DNA of 64,000 nt, taken from NCBI GenBank assembly GCA_963783305.1, contig CAWAMW010000016.1, positions 739,491 to 803,490 of the forward strand. Reading direction: 5' to 3'. The stretch is from an uncultured Gemmatimonadales bacterium (GTDB lineage: Bacteria > Gemmatimonadota > Gemmatimonadetes > Longimicrobiales > RSA9). The notes beneath the pieces are model-generated. The model was not told the DNA's origin and did not search any database. It saw nothing but the letters and a program-made list of their open reading frames with translations. Shown in pieces: positions 57,026 through 61,475 of the stretch. The position numbers were made by a program, and so were the translations under genes. Position 1 is the stretch's first letter, and every line of letters starts with the position of its first letter.

Positions 57026-57232
57026 ATGAAGTATCGGGTGCTGGTAGAGCAGGACGAGGACGGATTCTTCGCGGCGGAGGTTCCGGCGCTGCCCGGGTGT
57101 GTCAGCCAGGGCGCGACGCGGCAGGAGGCGCTCGAGAACATCAGGGAGGCGATCGCCGGGTACCTTGAGAGCCTGGATGATCACCAGGAGCCGGTGCCGC
57201 CCTCGATCCACGAAGAGATCGTCGAGGTATAA
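57026..57232 (+). CDS. hicB: HicB family antitoxin (short form)
   Basis: YRVLVEQDEDG.F.AEVPALPGCVSQGATRQEALENIREAI. Confidence 0.92.
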   Translation: MKYRVLVEQDEDGFFAAEVPALPGCVSQGATRQEALENIREAIAGYLESLDDHQEPVPPSIHEEIVEV

Positions 57233-57456
57233 TGGCGGAGCTGCCAGTCGTCTCAGGACGCGAGGCAGTGAAGGCGTTCGGTAAGCTCGGGTATCGAGTC
57301 GACCGTCAACGTGGAAGTCACATCATTCTGAGACAGGCGGAACCCCCTCATCGCCGCCTGACAATTCCAGACCACAAAGAAGTTCGAAAAGGGACGCTGC
57401 GCGCGTTGATTCGTCAGGCTGGCCTGACGGTCGACGAGTTCGTGGCTCTCTTGTAG
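57232..57456 (+). CDS. hicA: HicA family mRNA interferase toxin
   Basis: RQRGSHIIL..TIPDHKEVRKGTLRALIRQAGL. Confidence 0.92.
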   Translation: MAELPVVSGREAVKAFGKLGYRVDRQRGSHIILRQAEPPHRRLTIPDHKEVRKGTLRALIRQAGLTVDEFVALL

Positions 57457-57518
57457 GGCCGGGGAACAGCCCGTTCGAGACAGGTCTTGATGCTGGACGG
57501 GCGTGACGGCAGTTAACA

Positions 57519-57949
57519 CGTATGAGGCCCCGGGCGTCAAGGGTGCGCACGAGTACGAGGCCGTTGCGAGGCAACGGAGCAGCTTTGAGATCGGCCGGTG
57601 ACCCTGACTTGGTTTCGACTCTTGGCTGCAGATTAGGCTCTGCACCAAACACGTATTGAGGCTCGAGGCCTAGAAATTCATTCTGACCCTCGCATCCGGC
57701 CTATTCAAAGGAGACGGGCTCGCCATGAGGCGTCCAGTTATCTCCGGGCTCGGGGGAGGGGCAGAGCCTGCAAGCCGAGCATCTATGTAGATGAGCGAGA
57801 AGGGTGTCCAATCAAACGGCCGCGGTGCCGGACGTGTGGTGCCCATGGAGCCGGGTTCAGGTGCTTCGAGCACATTGGTTACGAACTCCCATGAGGGCTC
57901 TGTCTTTGGCGGCTCGAGTTATACGCCGGGCTCACCCTCCTCACTCTGC
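57519..57949 (-). ncRNA. Candidate bridge/seek RNA region in the IS right end
   Basis: ~430-bp ORF-poor end containing copies of both junction sequences and a duplicated motif; RNA expression is inferred. Confidence 0.6.
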
Positions 57950-58993
57950 TCAGTTCGGAAAGAAGCGATCCATATCGAACGCTCGCTTTTGCTTGAGCAT
58001 GAAGTAGTTGGCGCGGCCGAGCTTGGCGGCCAGGATGCTGAGCGCTTTGCCTTTGCCATAGCGCCGCCGCAGCCGCTTGATGTGCTGCTTCCCGCTCGGG
58101 TTGTTGTGGAGGAAGCAGACGGCCGCCTCGGAGTAGGCCCATTTGAGATGGGCGTTTCCGATCTTCGCGCCGGAGGTGCCCAGGCGTTTGCCGGCGGATT
58201 CCTTGGGTGCTTTCACGAGTCGAGCGTACGAGCTGAAGTTCTGGACTCGCGGAAATCGTTCAATGGTGTGGATCTCATAGAGGATCGTGAGCCCCAGGAT
58301 TCGGCCGATGCCGGGGGTGGTCTGGAGCACGTGGAGTGAATGGGCGTTGTGCCGACTGGCCTGGCGCTGCACCGTCTTCTCGAGTTCCTTGATCACCGTG
58401 TCGTACGTAGTGCAGAGCTGGAGGTCGGCTTGAACGGTGTGGCGGACGATCGGGTCCTTGAATTGGGCTGGGATCGCTTCGCGGCTCTTCTTCGTAAGGA
58501 GCGTTCCCTTCGGGGCCGGCAGGTTGTATTGGTGGAAGGTGTTGCGGACGTGCGAGAGCATCTCGCTCCGCTTCCGAGTGAAGTAGAGTCGGCGGCGAAG
58601 CAGGTCGCGAGTCGCGCGCATTGCAGGCGGATACACATAGGCCTGCGGGATGACGCCACCTCGGAGCAGGACCACGAGCTTCTCGGAGTCGATGCGGTCG
58701 TTCTTGGTCTTGGCGCCGTGGATCGCTTTCAGGTAGAGGGCGTGAGCCAGGACGAAGGCAATCCCGTGCTCAGCACAGAGATCGGCGAGCCAATACCAAC
58801 AGAAGATGCATTCGGCACAGACGACCAGATCCTCCATGTACGGCCGAACGGCCTGCAGAAATTCTTCGGGTGTGCAGTCCGCCCGCTCGTGGAGCAGGAT
58901 GGTGCCCTGGTGGTCGGTGACGCACAGGTACATGGTCCGGGCGTGGAGGTCGACGCCGCAGTAGTAGCGGTGGGAGCCGCGGTAGAAGCGCAT
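57950..58993 (-). CDS. IS110 family DEDD transposase/recombinase
   Basis: CGVDLH, AEC, KTKNDRID (DEDD); TPGIG, ESAGK (candidate catalytic Ser), KIGN..LKWA; CAGGAGG RBS. Confidence 0.95.
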   Translation of the reverse strand: MRFYRGSHRYYCGVDLHARTMYLCVTDHQGTILLHERADCTPEEFLQAVRPYMEDLVVCAECIFCWYWLADLCAEHGIAFVLAHALYLKAIHGAKTKNDRIDSEKLVVLLRGGVIPQAYVYPPAMRATRDLLRRRLYFTRKRSEMLSHVRNTFHQYNLPAPKGTLLTKKSREAIPAQFKDPIVRHTVQADLQLCTTYDTVIKELEKTVQRQASRHNAHSLHVLQTTPGIGRILGLTILYEIHTIERFPRVQNFSSYARLVKAPKESAGKRLGTSGAKIGNAHLKWAYSEAAVCFLHNNPSGKQHIKRLRRRYGKGKALSILAAKLGRANYFMLKQKRAFDMDRFFPN

Positions 58994-59087
58994 GAGGTCC
59001 CCTCCTGGGGTGAGTGGATGCTTTGGTTGGCACCTGACATCCTGCCTGCCCCGTTGGGACAGGTCCAGGAGGGGCCTCGATGAGTAT

Positions 59088-59232
59088 CAAACGGTTGGCG
59101 CCTCCGCGTCCTGCGGCCGCTCCGGAGAACCCGCCGCGGCCGTCTGGGACCTGGTGAGGTTCGTGAAGTTTCGAAGGCAGCCGCGCGCTGGAGGTATCGG
59201 CGCGTCGGGTCGCCAACCTGGGAACGTTATGT
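59088..59232 (+). repeat. attC-like site E, main body (its R'' lies at 57511..57517, on the other side of the IS)
   Basis: CAAACGGTTGGCG ... CGCCAACCTGGGAACGTTATGT. Confidence 0.88.
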
Positions 59233-59599: not shown

Positions 59600-59675
59600 C
59601 TGTCGCCGCCCGGGATGCTCCCCCAGGAGCGAACACTCTAGTTCATACACGTGGCGCTCTCATGGGGCGGGCAGC

Positions 59676-59825
59676 ACATATCAAACGGTTGGCGCCTGCG
59701 CGGCCTGCGGCCGCTCCGGAGAACCCGTCGCGGCCGCCTGGGAGCTGGTGAAGTCGTGAGGGTTCGAGGGCGGTCGCGCGCTTGACTTATCGGCGCGGCG
59801 GGTCGCCAGCCTGGAAACGTTGAGC
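59676..59825 (+). repeat. attC-like site F
   Basis: ACATATC-AAAC-GGTTGGCG ... CGCCAGCC-TGGAAAC-GTTGAGC. Confidence 0.87.
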
Positions 59826-60238: not shown

Positions 60239-60380
60239 CAACTGGCTGGCGTCTGCGCGGCCTGCGGCCGCTCCGGAGCAACCGGTCGGCTTACGTGGCG
60301 GCGCCAGGAGAGGTGTTGCTGTTCAGGATCTCTGGGGCGATGTAGAAGCGGCGGCCCGTTCGCCAGCTTTGAACGTAGGC
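60233..60380 (+). repeat. attC-like site G (divergent; R' degenerate, GTAGGC)
   Basis: GCTTAACAACTGGCTGGCG..GCCTGCGGCCGCTCCGGAG ... CGCCAGC-TTTGAAC-GTAGGC. Confidence 0.75.
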
Positions 60381-60452
60381 GCCCTAACGTGAATGTTGAA
60401 TCGGGAGATGCTGCAATGGAGGCGTCTGCAGAAGGGGATGCCCCTGTCTGCA

Positions 60453-61167
60453 TCACCCATGGGCCGCTTCGATGATCTCGCGGGTCTTGTCAGCCGAGAC
60501 GTGGCCGCGAGAAACCTTCTTGATGAGCCGCCGGACCGTCCGCGGAGAAGCGGTCGCCAGGTCTTGCGGGAGCGGCCAGCGCCGGAGGATCGCCAGCGGC
60601 GTCCGCTTCTCGATGGACGAGAAAGCACCCAGCAGCTCGGGCCAGCCGAGATCGAGCATGCCCTGGAGTCGGTTTTTGTACCGCGTCGCCTCGACCGTGA
60701 GCCGGTGGCGCTGCATGATCAGGAGCTTGAGCCGCGCCAGATCATCGCTCAGGAAGGGGAAGGGAACGAACCGACCTTCACCCGTGAGGCGCGAGATCAG
60801 CGCGGCGTCGATCTGGTCGGACTTGTTCGGGCTGTTGTCGTCGAGCTCCTTCGCCTTCTTCGTGTGCGCAGGGAGCACGCTCACGATCCTCATGGCCGAG
60901 CTCCCGCAGGAAGTTGGCGTAGGTGAAGCCGTGATGGCCCGCGAACTCGAGCCCGATCAGGAATCCATCGGGCGGGACGTCGGGGAACTGGGCATAGAGG
61001 CGCTCCAGCGACCGCTCGAAGCTCCCCCGAGCCACCTGGACTGTGATGGGATCGGCGGCCACACCGTCGGGCCCACGGGCCACCATGACGTGGTGCTTCT
61101 TGCCGGTGTCGACGCCGACGTGGACGGGGAACGTGCGGGCGTACACCAGCTTCTCGTCCGGTCTCAT
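60453..61167 (-). pseudogene. Second IS110-family transposase, frameshifted (~60889) and C-terminally truncated
   Basis: VGVDTGK, GLEFAG, NKSDQIDA (DEDD); AAGGAGG RBS; C-terminal domain absent. Confidence 0.85.
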
Positions 61168-61407
61168 GAGGCACCTCCTTCGCTGAGGCGCCCGTGAACG
61201 TGTCCGCGGTGCTGGCATGCCCGGTCGGGCCACCGGTGAGGGCGCCGGTCCCACGACCGTATCGGTCTATAGGCGGACAGCCAACCCGTGGACTCCGGAA
61301 GTGAACCCGCTTTCGGACCGGAAGCCCAGCGGGAGCGGGGTCGGCCGGAGCCGCGTAGATTGCGACGGGTGAGCTTGAATGGGAGGGGCCTCCGTAGAGG
61401 CCGGCGA

Positions 61408-61475
61408 GCCTAACACGCGTGTACGGATGTCTGGCGCCTGCGCGGCCTGCGGCCGCTCCGGAGAACCCGCCGCGG
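61408..61475 (+). repeat. attC-like site H, 5' part only
   Basis: TGGCGCCTGCGCGGCCTGCGGCCGCTCCGGAGAACCCGCCGCGG identical to site D; GCCTAAC upstream. Confidence 0.75.

Follow-up and report, generated by a model that had tools for sequence, protein, structure and literature searches.

The locus and the inserted element

The window, by which the whole stretch of 64,000 nucleotides analysed here is meant, contains an IS110-family insertion sequence that is read on the minus strand and sits in an attC-like site. The element, its ends and the two parts of the interrupted site are as follows.

57517..59087, minus strand: IS110-family insertion sequence (probably of the ISGsu4 branch), 1571 bp with the 2-nt core counted once; the core is TG when read on the element strand
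59071..59087, minus strand: left end ATACTCATC with the sub-terminal repeat GAGGCCCC, an 8-bp perfect match to the right repeat
57950..58993, minus strand: DEDD recombinase (transposase), 347 aa, with PF01548 and PF02371; NF033542 at 189.9 bits (cut-off 140)
57540-57535, minus strand: -35 hexamer TTGACG of the predicted circle-junction promoter
57531-57524, minus strand: right sub-terminal repeat GGGGCCTC, part of the feature 57524..57540
57511..57517, plus strand: R'' box (AGTTAAC) of the interrupted attC-like site, the last C of which is common to the core; repeat family D1/D2
59088..59229, plus strand: rest of the attC-like site, up to the R' GTTA at 59226-59229

The protein has the domain plan of the IS110 family, with a DEDD RuvC-like domain and a C-terminal Tnp20 domain. 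Downstream of the gene lies a non-coding region of 434 nt, in which a TAAC guide precedes a TTG guide. The boundaries are given by an empty site in the public run X1, which is possibly the window's own source: a contig of this run joins 57516 to 59088, skipping 1571 letters, and two letters fit both sides. The insertion was thus made at a short shared 2-nt core, without target duplication, and a TG core is found across the relatives. There is one copy of the element in the genome. When the ends are joined, a predicted circle-junction promoter (TTGACG-17 nt-GATACT) is formed across them; no circle junction was found among the joints of four DNA runs. The sub-terminal repeats, 8 bp long here, have a median length of 8.5 bp and reach at least 11 bp in 9 of 72 clusters.

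Upstream of the insertion lies a cassette (window 57026-57456) for two small proteins, which presumably resemble a HicB/HicA antitoxin-toxin pair. A second IS110-type gene (window 60310-61420, minus strand) looks unrelated to the one described here; it is frameshifted and truncated and lies between two partial attC-like copies.

The attC-like target site

The element occupies the R'' box of an attC-like site. Of the features of an integron attC site, the R'' and R' boxes, the bottom-strand hairpin and the repetition between single genes were found. The reconstructed target folds as a 151-nt bottom-strand hairpin and has 25 related matches in the genome. On the element strand, the target reads CCGTT-TG-TTAAC, which is the edge of the R'' box. 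A tyrosine recombinase of 365 aa is encoded on contig C15 (genome G000, approximately 291,400-292,550), directly upstream of a 13-repeat array and in the same orientation. It is the best match to TIGR02249 (integron-integrase), under the cut-off and without profile positions 179-234. The contig that bears the window's own array has no integrase match.

The left end of the element puts GAGTATC where the R'' box had been (window 59081-59089). A natural site nearby (window 59674-59690) has CACATATC, and the targets of two relatives (L097 and L132) also read TATC. Since the replacement resembles these natural TATC-type sites, the interrupted attC may still be usable, which would make the element part of the upstream cassette.

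Three guide modules in the non-coding end

The original prediction described a duplicated module of the TAAC/TTTGA type in the non-coding end of the element, followed by a donor-like segment. The four strings that it quoted, GAGCCCGGCGTATAACTCG (57933-57915), CCGTTTGATTGG (57819-57808), GAGCCCGGAGATAACTGG (57751-57734) and CCTTTGAATAGG (57711-57700), lie on the minus strand exactly where it had placed them, and the two modules are real. The donor-like segment is indeed third in order: ATACGTG at 57656-57650 repeats the right end of the element (57523-57517). The parts of the predicted RNA are listed below.

57793..57946, minus strand: module 1, a stand-alone target-binding loop with a long closing stem and a variable apical insert (consensus stem)
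57918..57926, minus strand: module 1 5' guide GCGTATAAC, which reads the R'' side and covaries with the right flank
57811..57819, minus strand: module 1 3' guide CCGTT, core TG and candidate handshake AT; equal to the left junction CCGTTTGAT, with left-flank covariation
57680..57760, minus strand: module 2, a second target-type loop, found in 140 of 154 loci and without independent flank covariation
57745-57737 and 57713-57706, minus strand: module 2 guides GGAGATAAC and CTCCTTTG, followed by AA instead of AT
57648..57679, minus strand: donor-type segment with a weak 5' guide, GAATTTC, at 57679-57673
57656-57648, minus strand: donor 3' guide ATACG, TG and candidate handshake TT, the latter equal to the first two target bases
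57636..57768, minus strand: closing stem GGCTCTGC / GCAGAGCC, which unites module 2 and the donor segment in one predicted multi-branch unit (consensus fold)

On contig C15, an unoccupied attC matches the 5' guide of module 1 over 10 nt. In the sequence of the window alone, the internal repeat is borderline, as its score is reached by 20 of 300 dinucleotide shuffles. The fold of the entire end is not better than that of its shuffles (z -0.47), opening the guides by force costs 6 and 10 kcal/mol, and an Rfam scan of the region returned nothing significant. The weight of the two-module observation lies in its conservation among relatives.

Relatives were taken from the best 80 of 574 genome matches, the best 80 of 582 metagenome matches and six plasmid loci, so the sample leans toward close kin. 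They share 48-72% protein identity with the window's transposase and come from many phyla. For 154 loci, the sequence continues for 330 nt or more beyond the transposase gene. A motif parser found both modules in 140 of them (105 clusters at 90% nucleotide identity), and 131 of these 140 also have the donor guide. Among the 14 loci without a two-module parse, two are single-loop (L020 and L098, which represent one element), five are interrupted by other DNA, one ends early, and in five both modules can be recognised by eye or had been parsed before; the remaining one is L027. Module 2 is therefore present in close as well as distant homologues, and the consensus folds leave the guides of both copies unpaired instead of burying them in stems elsewhere.

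The same three modules are found in a sister clade at 30-33% identity, the flanks of which are without the attC GTTA/GTTR motif. As this clade has non-attC targets, the three-module plan is likely older than attC targeting. Viral contigs probed with two sister-clade proteins gave no relatives. In several elements of the sister clade (L204-L223), module 1 is separated from the stop codon by an additional 150-400 bases that include long GC-rich repeats.

Some loci depart from the common plan. In L020/L098 (54% identity), there is a single hybrid loop with a module 1-like start and a module 2-like end, and the core at the ends is different. In a tree made by a quick method without bootstrap, this element is nested among two-loop rows, so that its single loop is probably a loss, by deletion between the repeats. 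The right end of L003 continues into a second copy of its own donor-guide region, which may reflect a donor-like half-match event or a tandem duplication. L010 keeps both target loops, and its donor guide is deleted. In 14 loci (L027, L037, L109, L110, L122, L123, L125, L126, L131, L133, L135, L138, L140 and L147), a passenger of 0.6-0.8 kb lies between modules 1 and 2; it encodes a helix-turn-helix protein of about 120 aa (HTH_23 in L037). Passenger-bearing elements are found at 10 distinct left flanks. It follows that they have probably kept moving and that modules 1 and 2 need no adjacency.

Fold of the predicted RNA

The stem of module 1 comprises 14 consensus pairs, 13 of which show two-sided changes (38 sequences). 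Its cells are paired in 91.5% of cases, compared with 69% in shuffled and 40-49% in slid alignments. In the consensus fold of 34 sequences, an additional stem embraces module 2 together with the donor segment, so that the two form one multi-branch unit. The closing stem of this unit forms a duplex of -14.5 kcal/mol with its own partner and of -10.6 kcal/mol across elements. All five stems that were tested, including the inner and outer stems of module 2, pair better within than across elements (98 clusters); in the same clusters, cross-pairings between module 1 and module 2 are weak. Each target module carries CC-guide-UG twice, and the scaffold columns are almost invariant. The union of module 2 with the donor segment echoes the multi-loop donor nucleotides that PMC11208160 describes for IS1111 elements.

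Module 1 follows the insertion site

The relation between guides and flanks was examined in 105 cluster/target pairs. At left-flank positions -3 to -7, module 1 matches in 0.657 of cells, compared with 0.419 after permutation (0 of 3000 permutations reached the observed value), and module 2 in 0.453, compared with 0.395. Where module 2 mismatches, module 1 still matches in 0.505 against 0.291; where module 1 mismatches, module 2 matches in 0.211 against 0.240 (p 0.85). The right flank behaves likewise, with a residual p of 0.97 for module 2. These counts were made after the removal of flank rows that were mis-parsed or duplicated (eight right, three left), among which L017 is possibly a true site. 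The same picture is given by 40 non-overlapping close pairs, in which changes in the module 1 guides follow the flank (+39 over 44 changed cells) and those in the module 2 guides do not (-2 over 26 cells). An independent role of module 2 was not recovered by wobble-aware or run-length scoring. The two guides of module 1 thus covary with both target arms, as do those of the target loop in a bridge RNA of the IS621 type, and these comparisons of sequences suggest that module 1 likely chooses the site.

The donor segment matches the ends of the element unevenly. For the variable dinucleotide of its 3' guide, agreement with the right end of the same element is seen in 82 of 95 cases, and its 5' guide is a nearly fixed TTTC with a poor left-end match (TTTC as against the expected TATC).

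Handshakes and the sister clade

When the DNA is flipped, the layout maps onto that of IS621, and in each 3' guide the dinucleotide that follows the core falls at the handshake-guide position. The letters after TAAC had also been considered as a handshake; they were dropped, as they are part of the conserved UG-type motif, and the letters after the core TG fit. In the sister clade, where 3 of 33 loci had no parse and the letters were left free, the module 1 pair is identical to the first two donor bases in 16 of 18 cases (AT, AA and AG types). The module 2 pair is identical to them in 0 of 18. The donor-loop pair equals the target's first two bases in 17 of 19. Handshake dinucleotides like those of IS621 are thus present on module 1 and on the donor loop, and module 2 is mostly without them. 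Module 2 of the attC clade has AT in 12 of 98 clusters; the 98/98 AT of module 1 was built into the parser and is not evidence. Most module 2 pairs in this clade start with A, so one handshake pair is still possible. Compared with the target bases, the module 2 pair is the same in 0/83 and 2/19 cases; it is mostly non-matching or half-matching and not tuned to the post-excision state.

Module 2 nevertheless has the look of a loop that reads DNA. Across 18 sister-clade pairs, its core-adjacent base follows the target in 0.94, compared with 0.46 after permutation, and the positions farther from the core match less well than those of module 1; this flank test includes a few mis-parsed module 1 guides (L213, and the 5' guides of L209, L214, L217 and L220). 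On the right flank of the sister clade, the test did not reach significance (p 0.16 and 0.36). Where module 1 and the target changed next to the core in the attC clade, most elements have kept TTTG in module 2.

Comparison with known systems

The window protein resembles the published ISGsu4 over long stretches (a by-eye comparison with the sequence in the source data of PMC11187229). ISGsu4, an ISfinder entry, is clustered with ISGsu5, ISShfr7 and ISShwo5; it is listed under the IS110 family, with five insertion events. No description of its RNA or target was found in the searched literature.

IS621, as described in PMC11208160 and PMC13626964, shares with the present element the DEDD recombinase, the 2-nt core without duplication, guides for both strands and a separate donor guide. 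The AU of its target loop against the donor AT has the same handshake letters as module 1. The element of the window differs in the place of the RNA, which is downstream of the gene, in the opposite orientation in which the DNA is read, and in having three guide modules, where IS621 has a single target loop and a single donor loop. In addition, the donor segment belongs to a multi-branch unit and has a weak 5' guide, and there are sub-terminal repeats of 8-9 bp.

The IS1111 seekRNA elements ISEc11, ISPa11, ISKpn4 and ISPst6, in the account of PMC11187229, have in common with the element a downstream non-coding region, a top-strand match that comes first and a junction promoter, which here is a predicted one, and the stand-alone module 1 resembles their short seekRNA. 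That account describes one target-matching pair per element, whereas two target-type modules are found here, and it gives sub-terminal repeats of 11-13 bp, as compared with 8 bp here. The proteins are distant: those of the seekRNA elements are approximately 17-21% identical to ISGsu4, and the published matrix gives ISGsu4, taken as a stand-in for the window protein, an identity of approximately 20% with ISEc11 and IS1111. Full-length kinship with IS1111 transposases was sought among 181 plasmid matches (E 1e-12), and the 60 listed include no named IS1111-type record.

Membership in the IS1111-attC group (ISKpn4, ISPst6, ISPa21, ISPa25) was considered and rejected. According to PMC3001079, these elements likewise insert in attC, antisense to the cassettes. 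Their insertion point, TTGAA*CGAATTGTTAG in PMC13604230, is approximately 7 bp further into the site, whereas here it is the R'' edge. The protein also falls in a separate cluster, and ISGsu4 is 17% identical to ISKpn4, ISPst6 and ISPa21. The different insertion point and the low identity of ISGsu4 place the element outside this group.

The CC-guide-UG of the target modules resembles the box C/D motifs that PMC12045711 reports in TIGR RNAs and bridge RNAs; bridge RNAs are likened there to two fused TIGR units. TIGR stem-loop arrays, in the same source, consist of repeated dual-guide units with CC(A) and UG motifs on their flanks, and processing takes place at the linkers. Here, in contrast to such arrays of equivalent guides, three units of different roles lie beside a recombinase.

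Roles of the two target loops

Judging from the sequence comparisons, the reading that accounts best for these observations is that the non-coding end encodes a bridge RNA with three guide modules, in which module 1 tracks and likely chooses the site, the donor segment matches the element's ends, and module 2 is a looser target-type loop that likely serves excision instead of offering a second address. We would give it a probability of about one half. The role of module 2 is the part that we infer purely. The original prediction of a three-loop RNA thus holds as regards the two conserved, stem-closed target-type loops, the third, donor-type segment and the attC-like R'' target. Its two suggestions as to why there should be two target loops, for attC variants or for both arms of the folded site, have fared less well.

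It is possible, albeit unlikely, that module 2 is structural or largely vestigial, that it binds a recombinase dimer or aids the folding and processing of the donor RNA, and that it owes its target likeness to duplication and to copying, now and then, from module 1. The likeness between modules 1 and 2 is higher within an element than between elements (0.505 vs 0.436), and copying from module 1 could account for the likeness of module 2 to the target. The missing independent flank signal, the near-invariance of the scaffold columns and the single-loop relative (L020/L098) point the same way. However, the core-adjacent guide letters differ between the clades, being TAAC/TTTG in the attC clade and of GAC, GGG and CTG types in the sister clade, and they track the target. 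The donor loop uses yet other letters at this place. The letters of module 2 are thus not fixed for protein binding.

The first suggestion of the original prediction, that module 2 is a second and rarely used address for minority attC variants, seems improbable. In its favour, rare variants would seldom be sampled as insertion sites, and there is an unoccupied attC on contig C15 (near 296,150) to which module 2 can be fitted over 6+7 nt, as compared with 4+5 for module 1. Against it, in the repertoire of the element's own genome, from which 7 of the 25 attC calls had been dropped beforehand, module 2 fits this attC variant over 13 nt, and 16 of 104 unrelated module 2 guides fit equally well; the fit of module 1 to one free attC extends over 17 nt, a length that 0 of 104 foreign guides achieve. 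A mixture model of 160 sites gives module 2 a best share of 0, and the upper bound is approximately 9%. Where both flanks are known, module 1 wins at 65 of 83 sites and module 2 at 9. Module 2 adds nothing once module 1 has been accounted for, and it is without the handshake that favours insertion. For the ISGsu4 branch, the data argue against two equal addresses.

The other suggestion, that the two loops bind the R'' and R' arms of the folded attC, has in its favour a GTTA on each arm, on opposite strands, and the hairpin-gated IS110 element ISPpu10, which is described in a review; it is very improbable and already contradicted, since most of 64 reconstructed sites have AAC-G at R' on the bottom strand (top strand C-GTT, not T-GTT; the folds were constrained and some R' picks are poor) while module 2 ends in TG, and since the sister clade keeps the same two-loop plan at flanks without the attC GTTA/GTTR motif.

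What is known of related systems bears on the preferred reading, in which module 1 serves insertion and module 2 excision. The handshake of IS621 promotes insertion and holds excision down, and excision rose approximately 13,000-fold with an engineered RNA whose changes included the handshakes (both PMC13626964). A preprint describes IS621 excision with donor loops alone, without the need for a target match (10.64898/2026.08.31.748434). For circle formation by ISEc21, short flank matches are described as sufficient (PMC11187229); ISEc11 requires its flanks. Split IS622 guides are described as outperforming joined ones (10.1101/2025.05.14.653916).

The process might then run as follows. Transcription would start from the circle-junction promoter, and processing would yield a stand-alone module 1 RNA and an RNA of module 2 and the donor segment. 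One recombinase dimer would sit on each loop. Insertion would use module 1 with the donor loop, the handshakes locking the direction forward, and circle formation would use module 2 with the donor loop. Circle formation would be entrusted to module 2 because a short core-proximal match without a handshake would be less of an obstacle to the reverse exchange and would put up with imperfect sites. The passenger loci, found at 10 left flanks, fit separable RNAs.

Tentatively, and with rather less than even confidence, it can be proposed that this branch has solved the conflict between insertion and excision in its RNA: a long-guide loop with a handshake would lock insertion, and a donor-tethered loop without one would excise from any occupied site.

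Significance

The chemistry is of a known type; a three-module plan with unequal target loops is new to the searched literature. Neither a bridge RNA with two target loops nor the RNA of the ISGsu4 branch was found described there. A locus for which more than one donor loop is predicted is mentioned in a preprint (10.64898/2026.08.14.744561).

IS621 guide designs that are good for insertion are bad for excision, which makes the natural mobilisation route of these elements a puzzle. Two target loops that differ exactly in guide fidelity and handshake make the question of insertion versus excision directly testable. The arrangement could yield separable guides for inserting and excising with one small protein, which would be of use to genome engineers. 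The findings also point to a widespread attC-targeting lineage that is distinct from the IS1111-attC group. If this branch has indeed solved the conflict between insertion and excision in its RNA, these elements would be a natural two-direction bridge system, and the attC-seeking clade would represent a second RNA-guided route into integrons, in many phyla.
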